Shown: piece after piece, positions 7,065 through 62,884 of the stretch
How the letters are laid out: the number at the start of each line of letters is the position of its first letter
Position numbering within the stretch: position 1 is the stretch's first letter
Assembly: GCA_964504535.1 (NCBI GenBank)
Contig: CAZDED010000001.1
Span: 101,804-165,803, forward strand
Origin: an uncultured Gammaproteobacteria bacterium
GTDB taxonomy: Bacteria > Patescibacteriota > Microgenomatia > Levybacterales > GWA1-39-11
DNA: 64,000 bases
Direction: 5' to 3'
The notes under the pieces: model-generated
The model's database searches: none
The model's input: the letters and a program-made list of their open reading frames with translations, nothing else
Told to the model about the DNA's origin: nothing
Program-made: the position numbers and the translations under genes

Positions 7065-7074
7065 AGATCGTGAA

Positions 7075-7770: not shown

Positions 7771-7771
7771 C

Positions 7772-8983: not shown

Positions 8984-9029
8984 ACCTCTTGCCTAATTGG
9001 CAGTTGACTGATACAATTGATAACAATAT

Positions 9030-10526: not shown

Positions 10527-10532
10527 CATCTC

Positions 10533-13500: not shown

Positions 13501-13880
13501 TATTTGCACTTACCGGTACGCCACTTTCTTTCCCAGCACTTATCGGGGTGCTTTCCCTCTTTGGAATAGTGGTAACACACGCCATGTTTTTAGTGGACAA
13601 ATTCAATAGAAACTTAGCAATAAATATGCCATTTAAAGAAGCTATTGCAGATGGTGCCGCAAGTAGGCTAGAGCCGGTCTTTATTGGGTCATTTACCACC
13701 ATTGTGGGACTTATCCCTATCTCTTTATCAAATCCTCTCTGGCGTGGACTTGGAGGGGCTATTATTGCAGGACTCGCTTTTTCAGGAATCATCATGTTAT
13801 TCTTCATTCCGGTAATGTACTATATCGTGTATAGGCACGACTATGAGAAGAAAACTTCTGGAACAAATCCCCGAGTTTAG
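10533..13880 (+). CDS. RND efflux transporter permease, AcrB/HAE family (1115 aa, 12 TM).
   Basis: It shows the typical N-terminus (TM1 then LPRRLNPEVKIPIVAVTTILPGASPKDVEELVTNPIEDAIKG), two large periplasmic loops, and 12 predicted TM helices in a 1+5/1+5 arrangement. Confidence 0.85.
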   Translation: MEQKNSYLSRLKFDPTLLSSFKAKYLSNIRIVLLLLFLIVATGVSSFLTLPRRLNPEVKIPIVAVTTILPGASPKDVEELVTNPIEDAIKGTKGITTLNSSSNESASTIIVEFSSNISPDKAEADLKSAVDTVTDLPEDAKDPIVRKFDFEDQPIWIFAVKSNDPASLYRFSKQLRDKLEDDSIIDRVTVSGLEDQEIQILADAEEITNNGINPLMLSGTIRSLLASYPSGNVNSQSLSFPVGINPSIASTNDLRNMTLKVEGEQVKLSDIASVSEKTKPGLQKAFIADNASKAETVATFSVYKNSSATIDEGSQRTKKIVEDMIKPYKDTFKVVSITDSSHLIDDEFGNLTDSFRDTLILVFITFLIFLGIRQALIAVLTIPLTFLATFTVIHSVGLSLNFLTLFSLLLALGLLVDDTIVVVTGMTSYYRTKKFTPHQTGLLVWRDLIVPIWSTTITTSWAFLPLLLSTGIIGEFIKTIPIVVATTLYSSTAIAVLITIPLMIVVLKFNIPRRVAILMKIVTILLVVFLILTLFKGNPFVIVILLLTALFAYITIRERALLYSKFEDLIGRTRIRNTKVLATRFNERLIDIEHLALYYKRVILRILSSKSARKKVLIAVVIFSIFSYLLVPLGFVTNEFFPKSENDYIYVNLEMPSGSNTTTVTNATSSLLEKLRKTNGIEYVSAEVGKGIDAGAQDFRSGGNVALFTLSLPSKNERKIDSLEIANNIREELKHIKSEGKISVVELSGGPPAGAEVQVQLLGDDLAKLDSYADQIMAFLQKQQGIINVTKSVNPGTSKIVFVPDSSKLAASGISQDSLGIWLRTFTTGLTFKSVKFGEKESKDVVFRMNQDTQSPEDLSRLSVPDSDKSYVPLLSLGELKLDTNPTAITHLDTKRTISVSAGVSKGYSVSKSNESLLKYVDGLKLTDGYEYRTGGVNEENQKSVTSILQSMILAGILILATMVIQFRSYRKALIVMLVIPLAVSGVFIVFALTGTPLSFPALIGVLSLFGIVVTHAMFLVDKFNRNLAINMPFKEAIADGAASRLEPVFIGSFTTIVGLIPISLSNPLWRGLGGAIIAGLAFSGIIMLFFIPVMYYIVYRHDYEKKTSGTNPRV

Positions 13881-20470: not shown

Positions 20471-22819
20471 TCACCTAATAACAAGAGAATTGTTCTCGAC
20501 CGTTATTACCGCAGCCCCACCCTTCTGAAGGGTATTTGATAACAATAATTTTGACAACTGATTTTCGATTGTTTGCTCAATGAACCGTCTTACGTTTCTG
20601 GCACCAAATTCGGTGCTAAAAGAATTTTTAGCAATAAATTCAGTAACATCATCACTATATGTCAAAATGATTTGTTGCTCAGAGATTTTATCTATCGATT
20701 CCTGCAAGAATAACTTAGCAACAGAAACAGCATCTTTTTCTGAAAGCGGTCTAAATACAATTACATCATCAAATCTATTGATAAGCTCCGGTTTGTAGAC
20801 GCCTGATTGCTGAATTCTCTCAATAAGCTCTCTCTTAACATCCTCAACATTCACACCTTCTTTATATTTCTCTCTGATAAATTCGCTTCCGGCATTTGAA
20901 GTTGCAATGATAATGGCATTTTTAAATGAAACAACTCTTCCGAGATGGTCAGTCAGTCTTCCCTCATCCAAAACTTGCAAGAAAAGATCATGTACACCTT
21001 TTGATGCTTTTTCAAATTCATCCAGCAGTATCAATGAGAAGGGGTTATGTAATATTTTGTCGACTATGCCCTCTCCCAATAAGAGGTTAATAGCATCATC
21101 ATTTTGATACTCGCTCATGTCAAGCCGAATCATCGCACTTTCATCTCCGAAATACGATGAAGCAAGCGCTTTGGCTGTTTGTGTTTTTCCAACACCAGTT
21201 GGTCCTAAGAAAAGAAATGAAGCTATTGGTTTTCCTTCATTTTTCATACCACTCCGGACCCTTCTCATGGCATTAGAAATTGCAGAAACAGCTTCATCCT
21301 GGGAAATTACTCTTTTATGGATCATTGCCTCAAGTTCGAGTAGTTTTTCACTTTCTTGCGTGTCAGGCTTATCCAATAATAAATTTGTCTTCTCACCGAC
21401 AAAACTTCTGACTTCTTCTTCTGTAATTTCATTAACGCCATGAGTTTTGCAGTTAGCAATAACATCATCCAATAAGCGAATTGCCCGTCCTGGTAGAGCT
21501 GTTCCGTCGTTTTCGTATGAATCAGACAAACTAGATACCTCTTTCAGGCCGTTATATGAAATCGAAACATGATTTATTTTTTCTAAATCTTTAGATTTTT
21601 CCAGTATCATAAAAAGGGAAGTCTCAGGATCTGGTTCGGCTACCTCCACAACATCAAATAATTCCTTTACTTCTTGTTTTTGATAGATGAAAGTATTGAA
21701 TGCATCCTCGGTGGTACTGCCTATTATCTTGATTCTGCTACTTTTAAGATACTCAACCAATGATCCTGAAATATCCATATTTAGCCCTCCGCCCCCAAAA
21801 ATATTTTCAATATTAGGAATGTAAACAACAACATTCCCCGCATGCGTTAACTCAGAAAATAATTCAACAAAGCGCGCTTCCAGATCTCCTTGATTTTCGA
21901 TTCCAGCAAGAAGACGCTCAGAATAAAACTTAAAGACAATCTTGTTTGAAATATTTTTTGGGAGAACCCCCATATCTGAATCGAGGGCAAATTCTGCTAT
22001 CAATGCTGTCTTACCGACTCCCGCAGGTCCCACCAGAAGAACGTTACTTGAATGATTTTTTGAGAGCGCAGTAATTAATAAATCGTATTCTTTTTCGCGC
22101 CCGATTGGAGTTATAACTGTTTTTGAAAGTATTTCTCTCGTGAAATTGTATGCATATTGCAATAATTGTTGATTCCATCCAAACACAAAAAAGTCAAACG
22201 CACCACTGCCAGTAAATTTTAGATGATGCTGTTTTTTGCGATCAATACCGTACTGTTTTCTGACCCATGAGAGTATAGTTATAATATCTTTTTCATCGAT
22301 GCCTTTTTCAAACAAGGTCTTATTTTGACTATCGAGCAACAATAGATATGCTGCGTATACATCAACTCCATGAATGTATGAGCCCTCAACAGTGTGAACA
22401 AGTGCTGCTGCCTTCTGAAGCACATGTTCTTCAGATATATCTACTTCATTTTTTGCGTAAGAATACTGCAACAACTTATTAAAATATTTAACTTCACCCT
22501 CCCCCAGTAATTCTTTTATAACCTCTGCTACCGTTTTTTTTCTCTCCAAAATTGCACGTGTCTTAAAATCAGCGCATTCGATGACATGAAGAACGTTGTC
22601 TGAGATTTTTTTAGAAGGAATACTATTCTCGAGCTTAAAATGGATAAAGAATTCCTGAAGTATCAAAACGAAATACACCGGCAACAGATGCATAATAAAT
22701 GTCGGGTTCTTGAGATTGAAATAAACAATTACCCCAATTCCAAAAAAAATAAGGACACGTAACCACCGAATGACAGAATTGTCGAAAAAATAATAGAGAA
22801 AATAATAATTGTTTTTCAT
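20471..22819 (-). CDS. Membrane-anchored Hsp100/Clp-family AAA+ ATPase with a degenerate NBD1 Walker B. The likely start is MKNNYY at 22819.
   Basis: It has two N-terminal TM helices (WLRVLIFFGIGVIVYF, FIMHLLPVYFVLILQEFFI), a Clp_N-like region, and NBD1 Walker A LLVGPAGVGKT. NBD1 Walker B reads VVYIPNIENIFGGGG, with IPN in place of I/FDE. NBD2 is intact (FLFLGPTGVGKT, ILLDEFEKA, sensor and arginine-finger region). The first 46 codons of the 828-aa ORF overlap the upstream gene and were discarded. Confidence 0.7.
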   Translation of the reverse strand: MKNNYYFLYYFFDNSVIRWLRVLIFFGIGVIVYFNLKNPTFIMHLLPVYFVLILQEFFIHFKLENSIPSKKISDNVLHVIECADFKTRAILERKKTVAEVIKELLGEGEVKYFNKLLQYSYAKNEVDISEEHVLQKAAALVHTVEGSYIHGVDVYAAYLLLLDSQNKTLFEKGIDEKDIITILSWVRKQYGIDRKKQHHLKFTGSGAFDFFVFGWNQQLLQYAYNFTREILSKTVITPIGREKEYDLLITALSKNHSSNVLLVGPAGVGKTALIAEFALDSDMGVLPKNISNKIVFKFYSERLLAGIENQGDLEARFVELFSELTHAGNVVVYIPNIENIFGGGGLNMDISGSLVEYLKSSRIKIIGSTTEDAFNTFIYQKQEVKELFDVVEVAEPDPETSLFMILEKSKDLEKINHVSISYNGLKEVSSLSDSYENDGTALPGRAIRLLDDVIANCKTHGVNEITEEEVRSFVGEKTNLLLDKPDTQESEKLLELEAMIHKRVISQDEAVSAISNAMRRVRSGMKNEGKPIASFLFLGPTGVGKTQTAKALASSYFGDESAMIRLDMSEYQNDDAINLLLGEGIVDKILHNPFSLILLDEFEKASKGVHDLFLQVLDEGRLTDHLGRVVSFKNAIIIATSNAGSEFIREKYKEGVNVEDVKRELIERIQQSGVYKPELINRFDDVIVFRPLSEKDAVSVAKLFLQESIDKISEQQIILTYSDDVTEFIAKNSFSTEFGARNVRRFIEQTIENQLSKLLLSNTLQKGGAAVITVENNSLVIR

Positions 22820-22821
22820 TG

Positions 22822-23160
22822 TTATGAACTCTTGTAAAAAATAAGGGCTATAAGTGCAACTGGTATCAATATCAAAAAGACTCCAATTAAAAATTCGATA
22901 AGCAAAAGAAAAATAACAACAAGGAGAGACACTGAGATAAGAACGGACTTGATACACATCCCAAAAATAATGGAAAACAAGACCAATCCTTGCCTATATT
23001 CATTCTTAAGAGGTTTGAAGAACGTTTTAATAAGAAGAGGAAGGGACAGTAAAGAAGCTACATACCGGTTCAGATCAATGAAGAAATTAAGCAATCCTCC
23101 GAGAACATCCCTATACCAAAAAGTAATTAAATAAAATGGGTAATAGATAAAGGCAAGCAT
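22822..23160 (-). CDS. Small 3-TM membrane protein of unknown function, immediately upstream of the membrane-anchored Clp paralog (2-nt gap).
   Basis: The 112-aa product has three hydrophobic helices. Its TAA stop at 22822-22824 is followed 2 nt later by the Clp ATG. Confidence 0.35.
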   Translation of the reverse strand: MLAFIYYPFYLITFWYRDVLGGLLNFFIDLNRYVASLLSLPLLIKTFFKPLKNEYRQGLVLFSIIFGMCIKSVLISVSLLVVIFLLLIEFLIGVFLILIPVALIALIFYKSS

Positions 23161-23303: not shown

Positions 23304-24995
23304 ATGATTCTGTCCGATGATCAAATAAAGGCACTGGTTTTAAAAACCGGCCTTGCTACACAACAAAGCCTTCAAGAGCTCGTCGAGTTCTCAAAAAACT
23401 CCAACGTAACCCTTGCTGATGCTCTCATTGAGAAAGATGTGATTTCAGATGAAAATTTAGGAATTCTGATAGCCGATTTTCTCCATATTCCCTTCATTGT
23501 CCTTTCAAAACTCTCTATTCCTGAAGAAGTCTTTCATGTTGTTCCTGAAAAGATAGCTCGAAAGCAAAAAGTAATACCATTTGAAAAAAATAGTGAAGGA
23601 TTAAAAGTGGCAACGGTTGATCCACGTAACAGTGAGGTTCTTCAAGCAATCAGTAAAAAAACAGGACTAAAAGTGATCCCGTATCTGACTACTGAACGGG
23701 ACGTTGATAATATCTTGCGTATATATAAGAGGGATCTTCAAAAATCCTTTGAACAACTCCTACAAAAAGAGCTTGGCATTTCAGATATCTCAAAAGTAAC
23801 TGATGCTGCTCCAATTGAAAAGATTGTGAATCTTCTGGTAGAGTTTGGATACAGTGACAAAGTTTCTGATATCCATATCGAGCCTGAAGAAAAAGATTCT
23901 CTCGTTCGGTTCAGGATTGATGGTATATTACATGATGTTTTATATCTTCCTAAAAACTTCCATGAAAGAATTATTTCTCGTATCAAAATACTTTCAAAAC
24001 TTCGAACAGATGAGCATCTGAGCCCACAGGATGGAAAGATGCGTATTAAGCTCGATGAAGAAAATCTTGATATCCGCGTGTCTGTACTTCCAATTGCTGA
24101 TGGCGAGAAAGCAGTTCTTAGGCTTCTTGCTTCACACTTCAGGCAATTTTCCCTGATAGATCTTGGTATGAGTGAACCGGATCTGAAGAAAGTAACCAAT
24201 GCTTATAGCAAATCGTATGGCATGGTACTTTCGACCGGACCTACCGGAAGTGGTAAAACTACCTCTATCTACGCTATTTTAAAGATTCTTAACACTCGAG
24301 AAAAAAATATCACAACAATCGAAGACCCTGTTGAATACAGAATTAAAGGGGTCAATCAAATCAATGTAAACCAAAAAACCGACCTTACGTTTGCTAATGG
24401 GTTGCGATCTATTCTACGGCAGGATCCGAATGTTGTTTTTGTGGGAGAAATCCGAGATGGAGAGACGGCTGGCATTGCAGTGAATGCTGCTTTGACTGGT
24501 CATTTAGTTCTCTCGACACTTCACACGAATGATGCAGCAACAGCACTCCCACGACTTATTGATATGAAGGTTGAGCCTTTTCTTGTCGCTTCAACCGTAA
24601 ATGTCATCATTGCACAACGTCTGATAAGAAAGATTTGTGATATGTGCAAAATGTCTTATGACATATTAAGAACTGATCTTGCTAAAAACTTACCACCTAC
24701 CATTATTTCAAAACACTTTGGAGACAGGGAAAATATTAAACTATATAAAGGAAAGGGTTGTAAAATTTGCCACTCGACGGGATATTCGGGTCGACTTGGG
24801 GTATTTGAGGTGTTGGAAGTGACAAAAGACATAAAAGAATTGATTACAGCAAAAAATGATTCTGACATCATTACAAAAAAAGCAGTAGAAGAAGGAATGA
24901 CCACTATGTTAAATGATGGACTGATAAAGGTATCAAAAGGAATTACAACTCTTGAAGAGGTTTTACGAGTAACGAGAGTAGAAACGTCATCATGA
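23304..24995 (+). CDS. pilB: Type IV pilus assembly ATPase (GspE/PilB family).
   Basis: It has an N-terminal T2SE_N domain, Walker A GPTGSGKTTS, Asp and His boxes, and a C-terminal tetracysteine motif (CDMCKMSYD ... CKGKGCKICHSTGYSGR). Confidence 0.9.
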   Translation: MILSDDQIKALVLKTGLATQQSLQELVEFSKNSNVTLADALIEKDVISDENLGILIADFLHIPFIVLSKLSIPEEVFHVVPEKIARKQKVIPFEKNSEGLKVATVDPRNSEVLQAISKKTGLKVIPYLTTERDVDNILRIYKRDLQKSFEQLLQKELGISDISKVTDAAPIEKIVNLLVEFGYSDKVSDIHIEPEEKDSLVRFRIDGILHDVLYLPKNFHERIISRIKILSKLRTDEHLSPQDGKMRIKLDEENLDIRVSVLPIADGEKAVLRLLASHFRQFSLIDLGMSEPDLKKVTNAYSKSYGMVLSTGPTGSGKTTSIYAILKILNTREKNITTIEDPVEYRIKGVNQINVNQKTDLTFANGLRSILRQDPNVVFVGEIRDGETAGIAVNAALTGHLVLSTLHTNDAATALPRLIDMKVEPFLVASTVNVIIAQRLIRKICDMCKMSYDILRTDLAKNLPPTIISKHFGDRENIKLYKGKGCKICHSTGYSGRLGVFEVLEVTKDIKELITAKNDSDIITKKAVEEGMTTMLNDGLIKVSKGITTLEEVLRVTRVETSS

Positions 24996-26065
24996 TGGAA
25001 TTATTTAACAGCAACAATCCAAAGTCATTGAGGATCTCAACAGCTGAGAAACTTGGCTTGATTAGTAATCTCGCAACAATGCTTTCTGCCGGCATCTCAA
25101 TTCTTGAAGTGGTTGACTCACTTCTTGAAGACGCAAAAGGTAACCAAAAAAAACTGCTTGATTCTTTAAAAGCAGATCTTGCTCAAGGAAATCATGTATC
25201 AGATGCGTTGGCAAAATTTCCGAAGATATTTGATAAAATCACGGTCAATCTTATCAAGGCATCCGAGGAAGCAGGAACCCTTGACGTAACACTGGTAGAC
25301 CTAAAATCTTCGATCAAAAAAGACGCAGAATTCATGGACAAAATTAAAGGTGCCTTAACCTATCCGGTTCTTATCCTTTTTGTCTTTGTGGGGGTGCTTG
25401 TTATGATTTTAATTGTTGTTATCCCTAAAATTTCCAGTGTTTTCCTTCGACTCAACGTTGACCTACCACTTCCAACACAAATACTCATCGGGATGTCGCA
25501 GGTCTTAACACAATACACGATATTTGTCTTTCTCGGGCTAGCAGTCATAGGAATTGGTGGTTTTCTTTTCTATCGGGAGAAAAAAAGAACATTTCTGCAC
25601 TTTCTTTTCATGCTCCCGCTTGTATCTACCCTCTCTCAGCAGATAGATCTAACACGGTTCTCAAGGAGTCTATATTTATTACTGAATGCCGGAATTCCTA
25701 TTGCTGCTGCTCTTGAGCTTGCCCAGGAAGTTGTTCTTAAAAAAGAAGTCAGTGACGCGATTGGTCACTGTAAAGATGTTGTTTTGGCGGGTAGTGAGTT
25801 GTCAGACGGCCTGAAAAATGCAAAAAATATTTTTCCAAATATCATGATAAAAATCACCGAAGCTGGGGAAAAAAGCGGATCGTTGGATAAATCGATGCAG
25901 GATGTTTCCGAATACCTAGACTACCAAGTTGAAAACACATTAAAGACACTAACAACACTTCTTGAACCTCTCATGCTTATTTTTGTAGGAGTACTTGTGG
26001 GTGGAATGATGCTTTCAATAATAGCACCTATATACGGACTGATTGGACAAGTAAGTTCTCACTAG
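24992..26065 (+). CDS. pilC: Type IV pilus platform protein (GspF/PilC family).
   Basis: It has two GspF-like repeats with 3 TM helices and overlaps pilB by 4 nt (ATGA). Confidence 0.85.
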   Translation: MMELFNSNNPKSLRISTAEKLGLISNLATMLSAGISILEVVDSLLEDAKGNQKKLLDSLKADLAQGNHVSDALAKFPKIFDKITVNLIKASEEAGTLDVTLVDLKSSIKKDAEFMDKIKGALTYPVLILFVFVGVLVMILIVVIPKISSVFLRLNVDLPLPTQILIGMSQVLTQYTIFVFLGLAVIGIGGFLFYREKKRTFLHFLFMLPLVSTLSQQIDLTRFSRSLYLLLNAGIPIAAALELAQEVVLKKEVSDAIGHCKDVVLAGSELSDGLKNAKNIFPNIMIKITEAGEKSGSLDKSMQDVSEYLDYQVENTLKTLTTLLEPLMLIFVGVLVGGMMLSIIAPIYGLIGQVSSH

Positions 26066-26156
26066 CATGCATCATCTAATAGAAAATAGACAGAAGGCAA
26101 TAGACAGAAGTACTGGAAACAAAAAAAATAATCTAATGTCTAATGTCTTTTTTCTA

Positions 26157-26636
26157 ATGTCTTCTAACCGTGGCCTGACATTAATAGAGCTGCTTCTTGT
26201 TATAGGAATTCTTTCTATTCTTTTTGCGATAGGCATCGTTAGTCTTACCAATATCAGAGTTATTTCCGGTAACAATAGTGCAAGTGTTGTCCTAATTTCT
26301 GACCTCAAAACTCAACAAATAAAGGCAATGACCGGAGATACTGAAGGGCGTGGGGTTCCTGATAATTATGGTGTCAAAATCCTATCAAATAGATATATTC
26401 TGTTTCATGGAATTACATATAACCCACTAGACACATCAAATTTTTCAGTACCGGTAGACAATGGATATATACTGAGTACAACATTCCCCAACAGTACAAT
26501 ACTCTTTGCGTCAGAAAGTGGTCAGTTGGTCGGATTTGTTCCTAACCAAAATACAATCGCTCTAACAAGCACACCGTCTGGGCAAGTCAAAACCATCCAA
26601 TTCAATGCTTATGGAACAGTTACAAATATTAATTAA
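26157..26636 (+). CDS. Prepilin-type pseudopilin / minor pilin (GspH/FimT-like).
   Basis: It has a class III signal (MSSNRG|LTLIELLLVIGILSILFAIGIV). The ORF-track start at 26067 adds 30 residues that do not look like a leader. Confidence 0.65.
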   Translation: MSSNRGLTLIELLLVIGILSILFAIGIVSLTNIRVISGNNSASVVLISDLKTQQIKAMTGDTEGRGVPDNYGVKILSNRYILFHGITYNPLDTSNFSVPVDNGYILSTTFPNSTILFASESGQLVGFVPNQNTIALTSTPSGQVKTIQFNAYGTVTNIN

Positions 26637-29586
26637 CAGTATTAAGAATCGACAGGAAGGACAACTTCTGATTGAGATTATCCTTGCTATCGCGATAACG
26701 GCAATCATGCTCCCCGCGCTTTTGACCGGACTTTTTTCATCAAAACAAGGAAAGGCGCAACAAGGGCAAAGGGTTCAAGCTGTTGCTCTTATGAAAGAGG
26801 CAGAGGAAGTAGTAAGAAATGTTCGAGAACAGGGGTGGACACTTTTCTCTGTCAATGGTACGTATCATCCGTTAATTTCGGGGACTACGTGGTCGTTTGC
26901 ATCCGGAAGTGAAAACGTTAATGGATTGACAAGAACAATAACGGTAAGCGATGTGTATCGGGATAGTAATGGGGTAGTTGTAACAAGCGGAGGAAGCCTA
27001 GATCCATCAACGAAAAAAGTTTACATACAAATAACATGGGGACAACCGTATGCTTCTTCGGTTGATTCTACTATTTATGTAACCCGATATTTGCAAAATA
27101 ATGCGTCAACCCAAACAAGTATCGCGGATTTTAATGCCGGCACAACTATCGATACTGCCGTTACCAATACGTCAGGAGGAGAGATAACGCTTGCACCAAA
27201 TACAAAAGGTAAATGGTGTTCTCCGAGTTTTTCAAGTGCAACCATTACTCTTCCCGATGGACCCCCTGTTGCAGTTGCGGCAACAGCAAGCGCTTCCTCA
27301 ATATCCACGCCAAACGATGTCTTTGTGGCAACCTCACCGACAACTACGAACACCTACAAGCTCGCCCATATAAAAGTGCCAGCAGATATTGATCCTCCGG
27401 TTCCTACACTTCGTGGCACTTTCACCCTTAACGCAGCAAGTTATAGTAACGCATCCCTTGTTCCAGTCAGCCCAGGGATTGATAACAGCTTCATCACAAA
27501 TGCTGTTAAATACTACAAATCATCTAGCGGTAAATTGTATGCGCTTCTTGCAACAACCAAACCTGATCGTGAAGTCATAGCAATACTTGTTGACGATGGA
27601 ATTACCGGCAACGATAACACAAATAATGGAGAGTATCAGGATTATATAAATAAGATCTATAAATATTGGACTTTTTTCGACACAAAGATTTACGGAACAG
27701 CTTCGGGACTTGATACTGGATTTTTGAGTCCGACCGCAAATGCCGCAGACACTGGTGGGGATGGAAATGGTTTTGAATCAAACCCAACTAGGGCGTATTC
27801 GTCTAACTCTTCGTATGCTACTGACTCCAATAGTGGCAATGGCAATGGGACAAACTGCACGGGATCTGATAAAGACAAACATAGGTTCTATAATTACGGG
27901 ATCTCTTTGCCATCCGGCGGGACTATTGATGGAATAGAAATACGACTGGATGGTAGAGCTGACAGTACTACCGGAAGTCCTAAATTTTGCGTACAACTAT
28001 CATGGGACGGTGGCACAACCTGGACAAGTGCAAAATCTTCAAACAATTTAACTACTAATAATGCAACATATACGCTTGGTGGATCGTCAGATACCTGGGG
28101 AAGAACCTGGACGGATAGCGATATGAATGATACAAATTTCCGAGTACGGATAATTGATGTCTCAAGCTCTACCCGTACGTTTTCCCTTGATTGGATTGCA
28201 ACAAAAGTATATTTCAGTGGGGGCACCCTCACGACATCTGATCAAGCACCCTATGGAGCGGGGGCATCATCCATAGCGGTTCTTGACGACAGAGGATATG
28301 TTACCTCTGGTGGATTCTTATATGCCTTTGACCTGAGCAATATCGACAATAAAAGTCAAAGCAGTGGCCTTGATATGATTGGGTGCAGAATAGAACTTGA
28401 CGGTGATGACTGTAACGCCTCAACAAGCAGAATTAGAAAATATGCTGCAGGAAATACTGGCACTAATTGGGGAAGTGAATCTGCAGGACAAACCGCTTGT
28501 GTTGACGGTGGAAATACGCAAATTTATGCAGAAAATGACATCTATCCGGTCAGAGTTGGTAACAATATATATGTGTATGCAGCGGTTGGCGCAGGAACTG
28601 ATCCAGAGCTTGATATAGCAAATGTAAGCACCCCTCCAACGGGGGCTTCGAGTCCTTCGATTACAGCAAGTACTTGTGGAACAATAGCAAGCGGAAATGC
28701 TTCATGGAAAAGAGGAGGATCTTTGGATTTCAATTCAGCGAGCAACACGCAAGAAACTGCTAACTCGGTGTTTGCCAGCCCTGATGGGACACGTGCATAT
28801 ATCTCATCCAACGGTACAGTGGACGCCAATAGTGATGGGATTCCGGACAGTTGGCAGTTTTATATAATAAATACAACTTCAAAAACAGCTCCTGCTTTTC
28901 TCTCAGGAACTCCCGCAACCGGAGCCACAAGCGGATACTATTATGGATCGGGTGCTAATGCAGAATTATATCCAAGAAGATCACTTACCGTATTTAATGG
29001 CTCTCGTGCGATTGTTGTCGGGAAAGATGGACTGACAAATGGCAATAATGCTGCCGAATATCAAGTGGTAAATATTACGAATGAGTCTTCACCTTCTTTC
29101 TGTGGAAGTCTTGATTTCAACCAAGGGTTTAGTGATTTAGCATCAGTAACTGAAGCTGATAATGATAAATTTGCTTATCTTGTTTCAAATACCGGGGTGA
29201 ACGAGCTAAAGATTATTCAGGGAGGACCGGATGGAACATATCTTGACACCGGAACATATGAATCTAGTCCTCTCGATCTTGGGGCGAGCGTACAGCTAAA
29301 TAGGCTTACTTCAAATGCCACAGTCTCTGCCAGTACAACACTGCAGTATAGAGTTGCAGCCACAATACCGGTAAATGGTTCGTGTGCAAATGCAACCTAC
29401 ACATACGTAGGACCCGATGGGACAGCAGGAACATTCTTTCCTGCAACCGGAGGAGCTATTCCATTGAGTGGTATTACAGGTTTTCAAAATCCAGCACAAT
29501 GCGTGAGATACAAGGCGTATCTTTCAACAACAGATTTTAACGTAACGCCAACTCTTTTAGATGCTTCAATCAATTATTCACCATGA
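26605..29586 (+). CDS. Giant (993 aa) modular pilin: a prepilin-type N-terminus fused to large Asn/Thr/Gly-rich beta-rich domains. It is a putative pilus-tip adhesin.
   Basis: The N-terminus is MEQLQILINSIKNRQEG|QLLIEIILAIAITAIMLPALLTGL (G-1, E+5 and a hydrophobic helix). About 930 residues follow with no further TM, containing many G/T/S/N beta-strand-like segments and several Cys. The gene overlaps the neighbouring pilin genes at both ends. Confidence 0.6.
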   Translation: MLMEQLQILINSIKNRQEGQLLIEIILAIAITAIMLPALLTGLFSSKQGKAQQGQRVQAVALMKEAEEVVRNVREQGWTLFSVNGTYHPLISGTTWSFASGSENVNGLTRTITVSDVYRDSNGVVVTSGGSLDPSTKKVYIQITWGQPYASSVDSTIYVTRYLQNNASTQTSIADFNAGTTIDTAVTNTSGGEITLAPNTKGKWCSPSFSSATITLPDGPPVAVAATASASSISTPNDVFVATSPTTTNTYKLAHIKVPADIDPPVPTLRGTFTLNAASYSNASLVPVSPGIDNSFITNAVKYYKSSSGKLYALLATTKPDREVIAILVDDGITGNDNTNNGEYQDYINKIYKYWTFFDTKIYGTASGLDTGFLSPTANAADTGGDGNGFESNPTRAYSSNSSYATDSNSGNGNGTNCTGSDKDKHRFYNYGISLPSGGTIDGIEIRLDGRADSTTGSPKFCVQLSWDGGTTWTSAKSSNNLTTNNATYTLGGSSDTWGRTWTDSDMNDTNFRVRIIDVSSSTRTFSLDWIATKVYFSGGTLTTSDQAPYGAGASSIAVLDDRGYVTSGGFLYAFDLSNIDNKSQSSGLDMIGCRIELDGDDCNASTSRIRKYAAGNTGTNWGSESAGQTACVDGGNTQIYAENDIYPVRVGNNIYVYAAVGAGTDPELDIANVSTPPTGASSPSITASTCGTIASGNASWKRGGSLDFNSASNTQETANSVFASPDGTRAYISSNGTVDANSDGIPDSWQFYIINTTSKTAPAFLSGTPATGATSGYYYGSGANAELYPRRSLTVFNGSRAIVVGKDGLTNGNNAAEYQVVNITNESSPSFCGSLDFNQGFSDLASVTEADNDKFAYLVSNTGVNELKIIQGGPDGTYLDTGTYESSPLDLGASVQLNRLTSNATVSASTTLQYRVAATIPVNGSCANATYTYVGPDGTAGTFFPATGGAIPLSGITGFQNPAQCVRYKAYLSTTDFNVTPTLLDASINYSP

Positions 29587-30155
29587 TTTTTTTTAAACAA
29601 AAAATAATAGTTATTAGTCAAAAGTTATTAGTTATTAAAAAAAAACTACCAGCTACTAACTACCAGCTACTAACTTCTAAACGTGGGTTCACTCTCGTCG
29701 AACTCCTTATTTACATGGGGCTTCTAACAGTTTTGATTCTAATATTTACTGACATATTCACTTCAATAATTGATAATCAATTAAGCTCAAGAAACACATC
29801 AAATGTTGCTGATGATGGACGCTATATTTACTCACGATTCATCTATGATGTAGGGCGGGCACAAGCAATTACACAGCCTTCAACCTATGGCAGTTCTTCT
29901 GCAGTACTTGATCTTACAATCGGTGGACAAAACTATAGTTACTCTCTTCTAAATAATAATCTTGTTGTGACAAGCCCGGCAGGGGCATATGCCCTTAATG
30001 GGTATGGGTCATCAATATCGGGATTACTATTCACCAAGGTAGGGACAACAAGCGCAAAAAGCACTGTTCAGATTAATTTCACAGTAAAGGGGGTCGTGAC
30101 AAGCAGGGGAATAAAAGATCAACAGATATTCCAAACTACAGCCGGACTACGATGA
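29583..30155 (+). CDS. Prepilin-type minor pilin (PilW/GspJ-like).
   Basis: KRG|FTLVELLIYMGLLTVLILIF is a pilin N-terminus with E+5. From the only in-frame ATG the leader is unusually long (35 aa). Confidence 0.6.
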   Translation: MIFFKQKIIVISQKLLVIKKKLPATNYQLLTSKRGFTLVELLIYMGLLTVLILIFTDIFTSIIDNQLSSRNTSNVADDGRYIYSRFIYDVGRAQAITQPSTYGSSSAVLDLTIGGQNYSYSLLNNNLVVTSPAGAYALNGYGSSISGLLFTKVGTTSAKSTVQINFTVKGVVTSRGIKDQQIFQTTAGLR

Positions 30156-30535
30156 AAATATCACCTACAAATCAACAAGGACAAACACTAATTATTCTTC
30201 TCATTTATATGGTTATTGCTATTATCGTAACAACCGCTTCAATTGCCCTTGTAATCAATAGCTCTCGAGGTACAGATAAATTATACCAAGGCGCAAATTC
30301 TTTAGATATTGCAGAAAGTGGAGCCGAAACTGCTATGATTAAATTATTAAGAGATCCCAACTACATTGGCGAGACAGTGACAGTCGGAAATGGACAAGCG
30401 GTAATAACGGTAAATGGCACCAATCCTAAAATAGTAGTCTCAAAAGGAACTCTTAATAACTTTACGAGAACAATTCAAGTGATTGTTGATACAAGTAATA
30501 ATGTGTTAACAGCTACATCCTGGAAAGAAATCTGA
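30152..30535 (+). CDS. PilX/GspK-like minor pilin that lacks Glu+5.
   Basis: After QQGQ|TLIILLIYMVIAIIVTTASIAL comes ANSLDIAESGAETAM, which matches the QA..AEAG.E.A motif of PilX-type pseudopilins. Confidence 0.5.
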   Translation: MKISPTNQQGQTLIILLIYMVIAIIVTTASIALVINSSRGTDKLYQGANSLDIAESGAETAMIKLLRDPNYIGETVTVGNGQAVITVNGTNPKIVVSKGTLNNFTRTIQVIVDTSNNVLTATSWKEI

Positions 30536-30536
30536 T

Positions 30537-31229
30537 ATGGAAAATGTAAAAAAACTACCAGCAATACTATATTTAGATAAAAATGGATTTTACTTTTATG
30601 AGGAGGGGTTTCCTAGTGTTGTAAGTCTTGCGTTCCTTGCTACATCCGTAAAAGATATGGATGTAATAAATGGCGCTTCGATTATGACTCAGGTTAAGTC
30701 ATTTATTGACCAATATAAAATACCCCCAGCGATAATAAATATCATTGTTTCACCAAATATCACATTTGAGAAGGACTTTGTAGACCTTACATCAGAGGCT
30801 TTGGAGGAAAAAACAAAAAATTTTGTTGATACGATCCCTTTCGAAAGTGTCATGAGCAAAAGGTACCCAATTGATAAAGGTGTCAAGGGCATCGGATGGA
30901 ATGAAGAACTCTATTTAGAATTAAAGATGAGTTTTGAAAAAAATTCTTTTATAGTTGACCAGGTGATACCATACCAACTTCTGGGCTCTGACCAGACCCT
31001 CATCCAGAATTTTACCCAAGAAAATGCAGCACAACTACTAAGACGAATGGATCATCTTAAGCAATTTACCATGCTAACTGTTTTAAAAGAAAAACCACAA
31101 GTAACTCAAAATGCTGATGATAAAAAGTCATCAAAACCAAAACAGAGCAAAACCAGACTGTATGTCATGGGTGGAATATTTGTGATTCTTTTCATTATTC
31201 TTGGATACATGCTTCTCAATCAAAAATAG
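30537..31229 (+). CDS. Hypothetical protein with a C-terminal TM anchor inside the pilus operon.
   Basis: The 230-aa product has a single C-terminal TM (LYVMGGIFVILFIILGYMLL) and no recognisable pilin N-terminus or ATPase motif. Confidence 0.35.
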   Translation: MENVKKLPAILYLDKNGFYFYEEGFPSVVSLAFLATSVKDMDVINGASIMTQVKSFIDQYKIPPAIINIIVSPNITFEKDFVDLTSEALEEKTKNFVDTIPFESVMSKRYPIDKGVKGIGWNEELYLELKMSFEKNSFIVDQVIPYQLLGSDQTLIQNFTQENAAQLLRRMDHLKQFTMLTVLKEKPQVTQNADDKKSSKPKQSKTRLYVMGGIFVILFIILGYMLLNQK

Positions 31230-31344
31230 ATTTTGATATATTCAGGTTCAAAATACCCTACGAACAATAAATTTTCGATGTTTGCGACCAATTAAAAATT
31301 GGTGCTTGACAAGATTTTTTGGATATGATTAAGTGAATACAGAT

Positions 31345-31827
31345 ATGAAAACTGCCCAGTTGAAAAATCAAAAAGGTTTCACACTCATCGAGTTACTCGT
31401 TGTTATCGGTATACTCGCTGTTCTTCTTGCAATCACTCTTATAGCTATCAATCCAGCAAGACAATTTGCTCAAGCAAATAATACTAAAAGATCATCAGAT
31501 GTTAATGCAATATTAAATGCTGTTGGTCAATATGCTGCAGATAACCATGGATCACTTCCTGCTGGACTTACTGCTAATTGTTCTGCTGCTGCTTGCGACA
31601 TCACGGGAGTTGTCGCTGCAGGAAATATTGATTTGTGTCCAGCGCTTGTAACTTCATACCTTGCTGCTCTTCCAGTAGATCCTTTAACTAATAATGGAAC
31701 TCCAGTATCTACTTGCAATGCAACATATGTAGCAGGTTACACAATTCAAGTAAGCGCAGCTGACAATAGAGTCACCGTTACAGCTCCTGCAGCAGAACTT
31801 AGCCAAGTTATATCAGTAACCAGATAA
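31345..31827 (+). CDS. pilA: Type IV major pilin (PilA-like).
   Basis: MKTAQLKNQKG|FTLIELLVVIGILAVLLAITLIAI is a canonical type IVa prepilin with F+1 and E+5. A C-terminal Cys pair (CSAAAC...C...C) would form the disulfide loop. I chose the ATG at 31345 over the GTG at 31333. Confidence 0.8.
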   Translation: MKTAQLKNQKGFTLIELLVVIGILAVLLAITLIAINPARQFAQANNTKRSSDVNAILNAVGQYAADNHGSLPAGLTANCSAAACDITGVVAAGNIDLCPALVTSYLAALPVDPLTNNGTPVSTCNATYVAGYTIQVSAADNRVTVTAPAAELSQVISVTR

Positions 31828-31845: not shown

Positions 31846-31872
31846 TAAAACACACTGCGGTGTGTTTTTTTG
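31846..31872. terminator. Bidirectional Rho-independent terminator between pilA (+) and dnaJ (-).
   Basis: The stem aaacacac (31848-31855) / gtgtgttt (31860-31867) has a tgcg loop. It is flanked by an A-run upstream and a T-run downstream. Confidence 0.6.
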
Positions 31873-31880: not shown

Positions 31881-32753
31881 TTAGAACCAGTGCTTCTTTT
31901 TTGATTCACGGTCAAACTCTTCAAGAAGTTCCTTTTGTTTTGATGAGAGTTTTGTTGGGATTTCAATTTCAACTCTTACATAATGATCTCCATGTTGCGA
32001 ACTATTTACATGCTTTACGCCTTTACCTTTTATTCTAATAAGAGTTCCTGGCTGAGTCCCTTGCGGAATCTTGAGTTTAACTTTTCCAACTACTGTCTCT
32101 ACCTCTTTGATACTCCCGACAGCAGCCTCCACCATCGTTAACTTGAGATCGGAAACGATATCGTATCCTTCTCTATGAAATTTACTATTTGAAGAAACTG
32201 AAATCACAATATCAAAATCTGAAAACTGTATTCTTGATCCATCATTGACTCCCGCAGGAACCTTTATGTCTTTCCTTGTCCCGTCTAATGAAACGGATTT
32301 TGTTGTTCCTTTAACTGCCTCCATAAAATCGATTCTGAGTGAGTACGAAGGTTTTCTTCTTCCGAAAGGTGTCCCTCCCCCCCCACCAAAAAATTGCTCA
32401 AAAATGTCGAAGGGGTCTGAAAAACCACCAAAATCCTGTGCGCCACCATTTGTTGAATATGAATAAGTAAATGGACCCTGTTGGCCGCCAAACCCTCCAA
32501 ATGGTCCCCCAGCACCCGATCCACGGCCACCATTTTCAAATGAAGCACTCCCGAATTGATCATATTGCTTTCTTTTTTGATCATTACCCAATATCTCGTA
32601 TGCTTGGTTTATTTCCTTAAATTTCTCTTCTGCTTCTTTTGACTTATTTTTGTCAGGATGATACTGCACCGCAAGTTTTCTATAAGCGCTTTTTAGCTCT
32701 GCAGCAGTTGCAGTCTTACTGACACCCAAAACTTTATAAAGATCATTACTCAT
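31881..32753 (-). CDS. dnaJ: DnaJ-family co-chaperone of type B, with a J domain and a G/F region but no zinc-finger domain.
   Basis: The J domain is [32 protein letters not shown] Gly/Phe-rich region ([21 protein letters not shown]) follows, and C-terminal beta-sandwich domains. There are no CxxCxGxG repeats. Confidence 0.8.
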
Positions 32754-32800: not shown

Positions 32801-35074
32801 TCATTGTGGGGTACATTTGAGAGGACATAATTGAATCTTCTTTCCAGACGCCACGCACGTCGGATCTGGGGTACACGTATAATATTGCTCTGGCGTCGGA
32901 GTTGGAGTACCAAGAGGTTCGAATTTACCACTTCCGCCTGGAACCGTCGTTGTTGTTGGAATGAGGGTCGGGGTTGGTGTTGGGGCAATAATAGTAGGTT
33001 GTAAAACAACTGGAGTTGGTGTTGTTTGAAGAGGATTTAGGGCAATAAATAATTTCATCGTCGTTGGTGAACCACTTGGTATAGTAAATGTTCCTTGTCC
33101 AACTATAGAACCTGATACTTTAACAACCAGAGTATACCCACCAGAAGGAACAGTATGAAAAGCGAAGTTACCGCTCGTATCCGTTGTAGCACTTGAATTC
33201 AGTGCTCCAGTTGTCGTAATTTGTGCACCCGAAAATCCTGATTCTCCTGGATCAAAAGTAGAATTACTATTCGTATCAGTATATACCGTACCTATGATTT
33301 CATTTATGATTACCCCTGGAGTAGATCCACCCGGAACTGGACTTGATGTAACAGTGGGAGTAATTGATGACGTTGGATTTGGCGAAGGGTTACCGGATGT
33401 TGCACAGGTTGCAGGTTGCAAGGTTGCTCCAGAACATGTAGGACTTTTTGAAACTCCAAGTGGTTGCTGGTCGATAAGTGTTGCTTGCATTGCTCGGTTA
33501 ACATTGTCACACTCTGTTGAGGAGGCACCATATATGTCACTACAAGCTTGTAAAAAAGAGGTGTATGCGTCTTTGAAATTTGAGGTTGCTGATAAATATT
33601 TTGTTAATGCCAAATATATAATTGGGTAACTTTTAATTCTCCCAATACCGCTCACAGAACACCCGTTAAAATTTCCCCCATCTGTCATAAGATAAAAAGT
33701 TTTATTTATTATTCCGCTATTTATGTGTACTCCACCAAAATCTGCAGCAGTACAAGCAAACGATGAAAGCTTGTCAGGCTGATCTCTTAATAATGGATTA
33801 CTCATTGATCTCAGCGGTACGGGAAGACCAGATGAAGGTGGCAAATTTTCTCCTAATTCCCAATTGTTATCCATCGCACTTCCAAAAATATCAGATACTG
33901 CCTCATTAAGAGCACCTGACTCATTTGAATATATAAGCCCAGCAGTTTCACCAGTTATAGCATGTGTCAATTCGTGACCAGTTACATCAAGAACCACAAG
34001 ACCAGTACAAAAAACCATTTCACTGCCATTCCATTGAGCATTTGGACAACTGTTTCTTGGGGCTCCTCCGGTACCAATATTTGGAGGAACTCTAACATAC
34101 CCATTATAGGAAGCACCCCTATTGTCATAACTGTCTCTATTGAAGTTGAGCTTGAAATAATCATATGCCGTATAAAAATAGTTATATAGATTATCAGACT
34201 CTGTATCTCCAGAAGCAGCTGATCCTTCAGCCCTCACCTTGGGGCATGATGTAGTACCACTACAATTAAAGATGTTTCTATTTAGTAGGTCTCTTGTTTG
34301 AGACTCCGAATAAATAAGTTTTCCATCACTAAGGCTTATGACATATTCTGTCCGAAAAATTGTTGGTTTTCCTTCTGACTTTATCATGATTCTCAATGCA
34401 ATTTGATTTTTTGGATTATCTGAAATACCAAGGAGTTGCTCATTTATATAAATTTTCTTTGCTCCCTCAACCTCAAGATTTGCAGTTTTACTTTCTCCTT
34501 TTGCTATATCTAATGCAAGTTGGATAGCTTTGGATTCCTGGATATTTTGAGAAGTGACTTCTTTTGTTGAAGAAACATTCCCGCTTATGGAATATACTTC
34601 ACTTTCATTTTTAATATGAACTGCAACGGATGACTTATAAATAGGAATGCCATTTAGAGATTGGGTAAAGAAATAATGTTCATTATTGATCACTATCCCG
34701 TTTTTCTTTAGATAACTATCATCCTTGTCTTGAGCTTGACGGGTAGGATTGGCATTTTTCGAAAAACCATCCGGGAACAATGGACCTGAATTTCCAATAG
34801 ATGGATTTTTTTGAATAAACTCTTTAGCTGCATCCAATCCTTTTTTATTCGATTTATAAAGATAAGTGTTTGTCGTGTTGATGGAAAATATTGTTCTTCC
34901 GGTATCTCTTGTTATACTTGAGTAAGGCGTTATTTCTAATGCATCAGTATTCGATTTCCCATTGAGGTATGTTATCAAAAAGCTAGCAAAAAAAACTACA
35001 ATAATAATTACTAATGCTACTAGTTTTGAATGCTTTTTGATTATTTTTTTGGGGGCTCTCAAGAACTCACTCAT
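32801..35074 (-). CDS. Membrane-anchored secreted zinc metalloprotease of family M4 (thermolysin-like), with a Pro/Thr-rich C-terminal region.
   Basis: It has an N-terminal TM (KLVALVIIIVVFFASFLITYL) and a propeptide-like region. The catalytic motif is HELTHAITGETAGLIYSNESGALNEAVSDIFG, i.e. HExxH plus the NEAxSD third zinc ligand. A C-terminal PT-rich linker ends in CTPDPTCVASGKKIQLCPLKCTPQ. Confidence 0.8.
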   Translation of the reverse strand: MSEFLRAPKKIIKKHSKLVALVIIIVVFFASFLITYLNGKSNTDALEITPYSSITRDTGRTIFSINTTNTYLYKSNKKGLDAAKEFIQKNPSIGNSGPLFPDGFSKNANPTRQAQDKDDSYLKKNGIVINNEHYFFTQSLNGIPIYKSSVAVHIKNESEVYSISGNVSSTKEVTSQNIQESKAIQLALDIAKGESKTANLEVEGAKKIYINEQLLGISDNPKNQIALRIMIKSEGKPTIFRTEYVISLSDGKLIYSESQTRDLLNRNIFNCSGTTSCPKVRAEGSAASGDTESDNLYNYFYTAYDYFKLNFNRDSYDNRGASYNGYVRVPPNIGTGGAPRNSCPNAQWNGSEMVFCTGLVVLDVTGHELTHAITGETAGLIYSNESGALNEAVSDIFGSAMDNNWELGENLPPSSGLPVPLRSMSNPLLRDQPDKLSSFACTAADFGGVHINSGIINKTFYLMTDGGNFNGCSVSGIGRIKSYPIIYLALTKYLSATSNFKDAYTSFLQACSDIYGASSTECDNVNRAMQATLIDQQPLGVSKSPTCSGATLQPATCATSGNPSPNPTSSITPTVTSSPVPGGSTPGVIINEIIGTVYTDTNSNSTFDPGESGFSGAQITTTGALNSSATTDTSGNFAFHTVPSGGYTLVVKVSGSIVGQGTFTIPSGSPTTMKLFIALNPLQTTPTPVVLQPTIIAPTPTPTLIPTTTTVPGGSGKFEPLGTPTPTPEQYYTCTPDPTCVASGKKIQLCPLKCTPQ

Positions 35075-40617: not shown

Positions 40618-40618
40618 A

Positions 40619-40936
40619 TCAAGAAAATCCTGGAATATGTAGAATATTCGTCGCGACAACCTGAATAAATACAAACCCAAAAATCGCAAGCAAAATCCCA
40701 ATGATGGCGTATGTTATATATGATTTACCTGTTTGAAGCTGCGCAGGATCCCCCCGAGATATAAGAATGTGGTATCCACCTATAATAAGAAAAAGTAATC
40801 CAACCAAGCCAATGAGTCCAAGCCCCCACGTATAAAATTTGCCTACAAAACCCGCAGGAGAACTAGGAAGACATCCAAAATCTGTCAGTATTTCGTTAGG
40901 CAAGCAGGTTAGAGCCATACTCATTAATACTAGCAT
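40619..40936 (-). CDS. Small (105 aa) two-helix membrane protein resembling the TrbC/VirB2-type (T4SS pilin-like) fold.
   Basis: An N-terminal hydrophobic, signal-like segment is followed by GKFYTWGLGLIGLVGLLFLIIGGYHILISRGDPAQLQTGKSYITYAIIGILLAIFGFVFIQVVATNIL. This is two hydrophobic helices flanking a short polar loop, as in VirB2/TrbC pilins. It lies 34 nt downstream of dnaK. Confidence 0.4.
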   Translation of the reverse strand: MLVLMSMALTCLPNEILTDFGCLPSSPAGFVGKFYTWGLGLIGLVGLLFLIIGGYHILISRGDPAQLQTGKSYITYAIIGILLAIFGFVFIQVVATNILHIPGFS

Positions 40937-62179: not shown

Positions 62180-62180
62180 T

Positions 62181-62804: not shown

Positions 62805-62884
62805 TTTAACTTTCTTGAATTAAACTACTCCGCATATGAGCAAGTGCTAACGAGCGAAATACAGAGAATGAGCTTTTAAAAAAT

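Follow-up and report, generated by a model that had tools for sequence, protein, structure and literature searches.

Why would a type IV pilus locus encode a pilin of 993 residues, and what would such a protein do? We asked this of eight co-directional open reading frames (ORFs) on the plus strand, at 23304-31827 of a 64-kb stretch of DNA from contig CAZDED010000001.1 (64,000 nucleotides, hereafter the window). The reading that we favor, with somewhat better than moderate confidence, is that in this block an uncultured, ultrasmall Microgenomatia bacterium (Patescibacteria) encodes the core cassette of a type IVa-like pilus, and that the 993-aa pilin is a host adhesin displayed at the pilus tip. 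An initial annotation of this DNA had described one block with these coordinates, comprising pilB, pilC, several pilin genes, a gene for a 230-aa protein and pilA, and ORF analysis together with Pfam and NCBIfam matches bears this out. The genes are as follows (↓ marks the putative prepilin cleavage site).

23304-24995, +, pilB, PilB/GspE-type assembly ATPase with an MshEN N-terminal domain (Pfam T2SSE, 1.8e-127; MshEN, 6.3e-16)
24992-26065, +, pilC, polytopic platform protein (Pfam T2SSF in two stretches, 2e-47)
26067-26636, +, 189-aa minor pilin (Pfam N_methyl, 6.8e-06; TIGR02532)
26605-29586, +, predicted giant modular minor pilin, 993 aa (ORF; without curated family match)
29583-30155, +, 190-aa minor pilin, leader ...KRG↓FTLVE (Pfam N_methyl, 7.3e-06)
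30152-30535, +, 127-aa minor pilin-like protein, G↓QTLII (sequence)
30537-31229, +, 230-aa bitopic/tail-anchored membrane protein (C-terminal transmembrane helix)
31333-31827, +, pilA, major pilin, 164 aa (Pfam N_methyl, 1e-09; GspG-like, 3e-08)

Is the 993-aa protein really a pilin? The ORF begins MLMEQLQILINSIKNRQEG↓QLLIEIILAIAITAIMLPALLTGLF (...IKNRQEG19↓Q), with Gly at position –1, Glu (E24) at +5, and the hydrophobic stretch LLIEIILAIAITAIMLPALLTGLF in the predicted helix alpha-1. A search of 5.8 billion proteins returned >684 homologs, of which the best 120 were analyzed; these share 53-93% identity with the query and are 955-1035 aa long, save four shorter ones. The pattern G-x4-E with at least 12 hydrophobic residues was found in 110 of the 120, and the residue at +1 is Gln in 97 of these 110. 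In eight of the other 10, the called gene begins with a Met that lies within the helix, and two have Ala at the Gly position. E24 is invariant in an alignment of 48 sequences, and Pfam N_methyl (PF07963) is matched by 16 of these 48 family members at E≤0.01 (best, 8.1e-06). Some homologs carry the NCBI/JGI annotations 'type II secretion system protein', 'PilV family protein' or 'pseudopilin PulG'. AlphaFold2, run with a 74-sequence alignment, predicted a helix at residues 20-76 (57 residues) followed by a sheet at 85-160, the lollipop of a pilin (mean pLDDT 84.5). The initial annotation had credited the protein with a bona fide prepilin N terminus, and this assignment withstood scrutiny: the motif is conserved among homologs, and no alternative start removes the signal.

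The genomic setting points the same way. We scanned every ORF of at least 80 aa in the window with a regular expression for class-III-like N termini. These were confined to five ORFs of the cassette (plus one antisense ORF inside the 993-aa gene, an artefact), so their clustering is not due to chance. The 993-aa gene lies between pilB/pilC and pilA and is flanked by genes for N_methyl pilins, an arrangement kept in ~76 genomes. Sequence and structural model thus support the view that the 993-aa protein is a true pilin to which large non-pilin modules have been joined. No paralogue of its gene was found elsewhere in the window.

How are these modules attached? Searching 1.84 billion cluster representatives exhaustively with HMMER produced 5966 matches, the best 150 of which were mapped onto the 993-aa query. 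The relatives come in sizes of ~300, ~645, ~815, ~990 and ~1015-1027 aa. Those of ~300 aa (P0174, P0224, P0237 and P0261) consist only of what corresponds to query aa ~13-210 and ~880-993. Those of ~645 aa, among the best 150 of the 5966 matches, retain aa ~17-273 and ~650-993, with LVIVD propeller repeats between. Relatives of 802-827 aa (827, 824, 815 and 802) match aa 16-363 and 546-993, that is, they lack aa 364-545 exactly, and a multiple alignment shows a clean junction in these proteins between ...FFNTRIYQ and QDQSPYG.... The existence of relatives lacking aa 364-545, ~275-640 or ~210-880 indicates that the 993-aa protein has a nested build, with the following predicted parts.

26605-26832, +, class III signal peptide (aa 1-19) and alpha-1 helix (aa 20-76) (homolog motif; AlphaFold2)
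26857-27084, +, pilin head beta-sheet, aa ~85-160 (AlphaFold2 strands 85-92, 95-100, 108-119, 131-145 and 151-160)
27097-27225, +, split beta-sandwich, N-terminal part, aa ~165-207, approximate (~300-aa relatives; invariant W204 and C205)
27226-27699, +, beta-propeller, first part, aa ~208-365 (AlphaFold2 all-beta; Foldseek propeller matches)
27700-28239, +, jelly-roll insert, aa 366-545 (clean absence in relatives; AlphaFold2)
28240-29244, +, beta-propeller, second part, aa ~546-880 (AlphaFold2 strands; generic propeller fold matches)
29245-29586, +, split beta-sandwich, C-terminal part, aa ~881-993 plus stop (AlphaFold2 strands 882-992)

The pilin head sheet is common to the ~300-, ~645- and ~815-aa relatives, and the C-terminal part of the sandwich is kept in all size classes, the ~300-aa proteins included. 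The propeller core has a mean column identity of 59%, and its second part holds many invariant Arg/Tyr/Glu/Asp residues and six invariant Cys. Weak matches to LVIVD repeats were seen in 4 of the 48 members and in most of the ~645-aa relatives, along with weak PD40 matches. Foldseek comparison of the whole model with the PDB returned beta-propellers only (phage nozzle proteins, Vibrio cholerae neuraminidase, DDB1, GH74, GH43 xylosidase and WD40), and a profile search of the whole family against PDB sequences gave nothing significant. The extra ~930 residues had been described as Cys-containing and rich in Gly, Thr, Ser and Asn. Indeed, G+T+S+N make up 42% of aa 77-993, and AlphaFold2 models the ~900-aa extension as all-beta, with a propeller and a jelly roll resembling carbohydrate-binding modules (CBMs). 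All ten Cys of the protein are invariant in 74 homologs, and Gly+Ala+Ser+Thr account for 42% of its residues versus 24% for PilB. High contents of these four residues have been reported for exposed pilins (PMC11623550), and candidate phyla radiation (CPR) genomes are enriched in MdbA-like oxidoreductase (PMC6744442). The invariant Cys and the composition thus fit an exposed, disulfide-stabilized extracellular protein.

The innermost module, the jelly roll, is not specific to pilins. Searched alone (~165-180 aa), it matches 854 proteins at E≤1e-5, including hundreds of secreted non-pilin proteins of Chloroflexota, Acidobacteriota, Actinomycetota and other groups, in which the copies are typically 55-65% identical (50-65% across these three phyla and CPR bacteria taken together). 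These carriers have Sec-type N termini, and the jelly roll is usually their last domain, sometimes in tandem. Its partners include S8 subtilase, M14 carboxypeptidase, isoamylase with CBM20/CBM48, galactose/glyoxal-oxidase Kelch propellers, PKD, Big_2 and Big_5. No Pfam model covers the jelly roll in its matches, most of which have no Pfam domain and the rest only partner domains, and no NCBIfam model exists for it. One jelly-roll-containing protein has a weak match to NCBIfam 'CPR_pilus_PamR'. Among 50 members scanned, we saw only sub-threshold matches, to GEVED (PF20009) in 13 and to Reelin subrepeat B in 6. The domain is nonetheless distinctive: it has an Asp-box-like SWDGGTTW, a GGDGNG motif, an invariant Cys pair (C418 and C462) and invariant Trp residues, and its mean column identity across phyla is 52%. 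Predicted alone, it reached a pLDDT of 93.7. The solved folds that Foldseek placed nearest to it are CBMs and lectins: an alginate-binding CBM and CBM4/16/22/29/32/35, and also chitosan-binding DD1, the BcsB carbohydrate-binding domain and BC2L-C lectin; its profile matched nothing significant among PDB sequences. Like GEVED, Reelin subrepeat B and CBM jelly rolls, the window module is a ~165-aa beta-jelly-roll, usually C-terminal in secreted multidomain proteins and with an Asp-box-like motif. It differs in that all matches fall below the thresholds of those families and in being unusually conserved. In our reading it belongs, as a divergent and undescribed domain, among the CBM-like jelly rolls, one for which the predicted fold and the domain company suggest glycan binding. 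A domain so widespread and highly conserved, without Pfam or NCBIfam model, merits its own family definition. In a rough neighbor-joining tree, the pilin copies fall into two nearly pure clades (97 and 21), a picture that may reflect one or several acquisitions.

How constant is this arrangement across related genomes? A scan of one genome per GTDB species gave 76 loci. By tblastn with the window's proteins, most of these have the order pilB, pilC, pilin, the large-pilin gene, pilin, pilin without Glu5, bitopic protein, pilA. Informative record titles of related loci name Levyibacteriota, Woesebacteria, Gottesmanbacteria, Shapirobacteria and Microgenomates. Many Microgenomatia metagenome-assembled genomes in the third-party-annotation records (L003-L078; cassette present, ≤91% identity to the window) bear the title 'uncultured Gammaproteobacteria bacterium' or 'Pseudomonadales', a labeling artefact. 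In a closed 0.93-Mb genome, pilB/pilC lie 7 kb upstream. Three loci (L018, L022 and L031; match at 8001-10934, for example) have the order pilin, pilin, pilin without Glu5, large pilin, pilA, and no homologue of the 230-aa protein was detected in them. The large-pilin gene of these loci occupies the position of pilY1 in Pseudomonas.

Among the 65 species whose orthologue is covered in full, the jelly roll is present in 44 and cleanly absent from 20. One orthologue without it is 72% identical to the query in its best segment, above most jelly-roll carriers, which implies that the domain was gained or lost more than once. In Levybacteria JACOXU010000001.1 (L079:8001-9929), the same slot is taken by a 642-aa pilin whose propeller is of the LVIVD type. 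The slot can be without an insert, or it can contain a small LVIVD propeller, a large propeller, or a large one together with the jelly roll. Judged from these sequences, the fourth slot of the cassette is a hotspot of domain-level variation, and such plasticity fits adaptation to different hosts. A bolder, two-part proposal strikes us as possible though rather doubtful: that the slot is a plug-in site, where whole domains are gained and lost in loops of a constant pilin/sandwich scaffold, re-targeting the tip to new hosts; and that the jelly roll captured there is an undescribed, exceptionally conserved binding domain of extracellular proteins in several phyla, in effect a new CBM family distantly related to the GEVED/reelin-subrepeat families.

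How might such a protein work? Minor pilins prime the assembly of type IV filaments and end up at the tip, with a Glu5-less subunit on top, as in the case of GspK. An analogy with tip-located minor pilins can also be drawn from work on modular pilins (PMC8179133). By this analogy, the N terminus of the 993-aa protein would be inserted in the membrane and, we infer, cut after Gly19 by a prepilin peptidase. Its alpha-1 would join the three small minor pilins in a priming complex, with the Glu5-less 127-aa pilin topmost, and PilB would polymerize PilA beneath this complex, so that the complex comes to lie at the pilus tip. A head of ~100 kDa could only be accommodated there. The sandwich would sit on the pilin domain and the propeller in the sandwich; the jelly roll, being inserted in a propeller loop, would be outermost and hence the most distal element. 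Propeller and jelly roll would together serve as an adhesin, most likely for a cell-surface glycan of the epibiont's host. From the models and the analogies, we consider glycan-binding host adhesin the most likely function of the 993-aa protein, with moderate confidence. There is a precedent in TM7x, a member of the Saccharibacteria: deletion of pilX2 halved host binding, filaments persisted, and host cell-wall sugars modulate binding (PMC11623550).

Several observations weigh against this interpretation. The 993-aa protein itself matches neither PF07963 nor TIGR02532 at E≤0.1, and its +1 residue is an atypical Gln instead of Phe or Met. The authors of the TM7x study noted that the large pilins are not predicted PilD substrates (PMC11623550). 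Among the ORFs of the window there is no PilM, PilT or PilD, which bears on processing and retraction. Matches to the whole model are weak and generic (identity 7-10%, TM-score 0.1-0.3), although low TM-scores are as expected for a multidomain query. Those to the jelly roll are weak as well (E ~1e-4, TM-score 0.4-0.5), and neither a binding site nor a ligand could be named.

What else could the protein be? PilY1 of Pseudomonas and PilC of Neisseria, tip adhesins of type IVa pili, also have ~1000 aa and a beta-propeller, are encoded with minor pilins and probably sit on the tip complex that these form. The 993-aa protein might be a PilY1 equivalent fused to a minor pilin, with a structural/priming or anti-retraction role and with adhesion secondary or absent. 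Its gene stands among those for minor pilins, where Pseudomonas encodes PilY1; in L018, L022 and L031 it follows three small pilins, as pilY1 follows pilX; and the propeller core, at 59% column identity and with many invariant residues, is much more conserved than is usual for a diversifying adhesin. Yet PilY1 is a non-pilin with a Sec signal that docks non-covalently, whereas the 993-aa protein has a class III-type N terminus and carries its propeller covalently within the pilin. Moreover, PF05567 (IPR008707) matched neither the 993-aa protein nor any of its 48 homologs. With no such match and with a protein that is itself apparently a pilin, the family is not a PilY1 homologue. Two sub-threshold PF05567 matches (0.013) were obtained with the jelly-roll alignment (49 non-pilin proteins and the window copy). 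Because they lie in that alignment, they say nothing about the propeller of the 993-aa protein; the window's own jelly roll matched only Nup120 in that 50-sequence scan. In TM7x, loss of pilX2 did not prevent filaments (PMC11623550), and a slot that tolerates ~300 to ~1030 aa suggests that the insert is accessory and not part of the assembly core. We regard a PilY1-like role as unlikely. The conserved Arg/Tyr/Glu/Asp residues of the propeller would also suit a pilus-displayed enzyme, such as a glycoside hydrolase or lyase for which the host envelope is the substrate and the jelly roll the targeting CBM. The fold matches to V. cholerae neuraminidase, GH74 and GH43 xylosidase fit this, as does the jelly roll, which elsewhere is attached to enzymes and carries an Asp-box-like motif. 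But those matches have 8-10% identity and are equaled by matches to non-enzymatic propellers (phage nozzle proteins, DDB1 and WD40), no glycosidase family emerged from Pfam, NCBIfam or PDB profiles, and no catalytic constellation could be mapped. An enzymatic head therefore seems to us quite improbable.

The remaining alternatives dissociate the protein from pilus-borne adhesion. It could stay outside the pilus, held in the membrane by an uncleaved helix as a cell-surface adhesin that merely shares the operon. The failure of N_methyl models to detect the query and the unusual Gln at +1 would be explained, and there is no peptidase gene nearby; the 8 of 120 homolog gene calls that start inside the helix lean the same way. 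A simple anchor, however, has no need of a Gly at –1 and a Glu at +5, both nearly invariant here, or of the basic leader, which is retained; furthermore, the gene sits between bona fide pilin genes in ~76 genomes, and 16 of 48 homologs do pass N_methyl. We hold this to be highly improbable. Hardly credible, finally, is a competence pilus in which the 993-aa pilin would be a DNA receptor like ComZ of Thermus. Type IV pili of CPR bacteria have been linked to DNA uptake (PMC6744442), and one relative (L001) has dprA ~3 kb downstream of its cassette, but the window's cassette has no competence genes on either side, the modules resemble carbohydrate-binding rather than DNA-binding folds, and the sequence of the head, acidic and polar, shows no obvious basic patch.

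How, then, does the putative tip adhesin compare with known systems? There are good descriptions of the type IV pili of CPR bacteria and of the components involved (PMC6744442), though we found no paper describing this Microgenomatia pilin family. The closest parallel bears out the suggestion that the locus be compared with Saccharibacteria, where PilX1 and PilX2 of TM7x follow the same logic (PMC11623550). Like the 993-aa pilin, these proteins come from CPR bacteria, are the largest pilins of their loci, have a non-canonical signal and are proposed tip adhesins (PMC11623550, PMC12206443). On its pilin module, PilX2 carries a seven-bladed propeller with RCC1 repeats and PilX1 a lectin/CBM-like jelly roll, and both resemble lectins (PMC11623550). 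Compared by description, the 993-aa pilin differs in uniting both types of module in one chain and in nesting them instead of placing them at the C terminus. It also comes from another class, Microgenomatia, and, unlike PilX2 as reported, neither it nor its 48 homologs match RCC1.

Modular pilins in general are already known: Raynaud et al. (2021) listed >1,200 proteins with 264 architectures, CPR examples included, and predicted many further ones whose modules lack signatures (PMC8179133). In the PilB-vWA and PilC-lectin proteins of Streptococcus sanguinis (PMC8179133), as in the 993-aa pilin, a small pilin module presents a functional module with no special tie to pilus biology, and exposure at the tip and adhesion are the roles to be expected. 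The initial annotation had invoked this modular-pilin logic, and it is right in that foreign modules ride on a pilin; aa 366-545, for instance, also occur outside pilus proteins. The modules are nested insertions, however, with no C-terminal graft. Raynaud's modular pilins carry an InterPro-recognizable module at the C terminus via a short linker, whereas the inserts here are nested and without Pfam or NCBIfam model, and the attachment is not by a C-terminal linker. At 993 aa, the protein also exceeds the largest example cited in that study (860 aa). GspK, CofB and ComZ are likewise minor pilins with extra domains at the tip, and GspK, whose extra domain is inserted into the pilin fold, is topologically nearest to the insertions described here. 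Their folds differ (alpha-domain in GspK, beta-repeat/sandwich in CofB and beta-solenoid in ComZ), and GspK lacks Glu5, which the 993-aa protein keeps; in the present cassette it is the separate 127-aa pilin that lacks it. The CPR Pam pilus (10.64898/2026.03.03.709456) was also considered and set aside as an unrelated donor-strand-exchange system, and the window's unannotated ORFs include no Pam-like gene. The unusual features of the 993-aa pilin are thus the nested insertions, the combination of propeller and jelly roll in one pilin, and the variable slot.

What of the other proteins of the cassette? The pilB product scores 533 bits with NCBIfam type_IV_pilB versus 174 bits with pilT_fam, and pilB is syntenic in 62 of 78 related loci. 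The 189-, 190- and 164-aa pilins all pass Pfam N_methyl, and orthologs of the small pilins keep G↓FTL(I/V)E; the N terminus of the pilA product is nearly invariant. In 73 of the 78 loci, the gene for the 190-aa pilin is conserved downstream of the 993-aa gene. The 127-aa protein has no Glu at +5, nor has any ortholog examined, the family consensus after G-Q being ALxTL. It matched nothing in Pfam, NCBIfam or PDB profiles, including GspK and PilX. We tried to place the small pilins as GspH/FimU, GspJ/PilW and GspK/PilX, but their family profiles match solved pilins in the PDB only over generic alpha-1. With matches limited to the N-terminal helix, the labels 'GspH-like', 'PilW-like' and 'PilX-like' of the initial annotation were dropped and serve as analogies only; the observation that the 127-aa protein lacks Glu5 stands.

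The 230-aa protein has a cytoplasmic domain, a K-rich linker and one C-terminal transmembrane helix, and it matched nothing in Pfam or NCBIfam. A homologue lies at the same position in 59 of 78 loci. Long orthologs of 345-400 aa (e.g. L001:14044-15084 and L030:11876-13018) add an extracellular LytR_C domain, found in 9 of 38 members (best, 1.5e-08); the window's copy has lost this domain. One of the 38 members has a weak PilM_2 match (0.0034). Against the PDB, the family matched DotF only, over low-complexity sequence, and this candidate was rejected. The protein may be a platform or anchoring component. A platform role would soften the statement that the block has no PilM-like gene, and the relationship to PilM is a lead, given by a hint in the sequences.

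The gene boundaries required some revision. pilB and pilC overlap by 4 nt, but the junction between pilC and the 189-aa pilin gene, which had been counted among such overlaps, is a 1-nt gap (26066). The 32-nt overlap at 26605-26636 is correct for the ORFs as called. Its length becomes 26 nt if the 993-aa gene starts at its third codon, ATG 26611, as its sequence and homolog P0002 (MEQLQ...) make probable. The true start of the 189-aa pilin probably also lies downstream of the called one, giving the leader ...NRG↓LTLIE. The spacer before pilA, previously put at ~115 nt, is 103 nt if pilA (leader ...NQKG↓FTLIELLVVIGILAVLLA) starts at GTG 31333, and 115 nt if it starts at ATG 31345. A scan of the block for promoters and terminators was at chance level (25 sites versus 24.1 expected), and no tRNA or Rfam features were found in the window. 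Between pilA and the convergent dnaJ (31881-32753) lies a hairpin with a 9-bp stem (31847-31868; AAAACACAC-CGCA-GTGTGTTTT), plausibly a bidirectional terminator.

Are other pilus genes present in the window? Two candidates lie ~30 kb from the cassette.

61607-62179, +, pilN-like gene (Pfam PilN, 4.3e-04; 20.7 bits, below the cut-off of 22.8)
62181-62804, +, pilO (Pfam PilO, 1.8e-08; 35.1 bits, above the cut-off of 22)

Of the PilN- and PilO-like genes reported there initially, the second passes its Pfam cut-off and the first falls short of the gathering score. In related loci, the pair is not linked to the cassette within +/-8 kb. It directly follows rpsT (61180-61506), without an adjacent pilM, and pilO is followed by a 111-aa ORF with one transmembrane helix and a Ser/Thr/Pro-rich tail (region 61607-63220). 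The reported lack of PilM- and PilT-like genes in the block extends to all ORFs of the window; PilM, PilD and PilT have been reported as widespread in CPR genomes (PMC6744442).

The neighborhood holds further genes of note. Two genes downstream of pilA, 32801-35074 (-) encodes a secreted M4 metalloprotease of 757 aa; this thermolysin-like protein has an FTP propeptide motif and a CarboxypepD_reg/SdrD-B-like domain, as well as Pro/Thr-rich linkers. Two Clp/Hsp100-type double-AAA+ proteins are encoded at 20471-22957 (-) and 35610-38468 (-); the one adjoining pilB, of 828 aa, has a long hydrophobic/aromatic N-terminal extension in place of Clp_N, unusual for ClpB/ClpC. At 5733-13880 (+) are two efflux sets, one with an HlyD-like protein, a MacB ATPase and an FtsX permease, and the other with an HlyD-like protein and a 1115-aa AcrB-type RND pump. 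They occur in what is presumed to be a single-membrane CPR cell, with no gene for an outer-membrane factor evident. Six ORFs (282-753 aa) are without Pfam or NCBIfam match: 739-3000, 3113-4387, 4891-5739, 38494-40701, 50054-51520 and 51526-53025.

What would the 993-aa pilin mean for the biology of these bacteria? To our knowledge, Microgenomatia are still without a cultured representative, and next to nothing is known of their hosts. Should the protein be the tip adhesin, the head and above all the jelly roll of 180 aa, which is separable, would be a concrete, expressible probe for the host surface, for use on glycan arrays, in staining environmental cells and in pull-downs. The presence or absence of the jelly roll (44 versus 20 species genomes), together with the size classes found in this slot, amounts to a natural experiment in the evolution of pilus specificity through inserted domains. 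If the jelly roll is a new binding family, its ligand would identify what these uncultured epibionts attach to. None of this need astonish a pilus specialist; its value is that the 993-aa protein provides a concrete handle on host recognition in a lineage without a cultured member.

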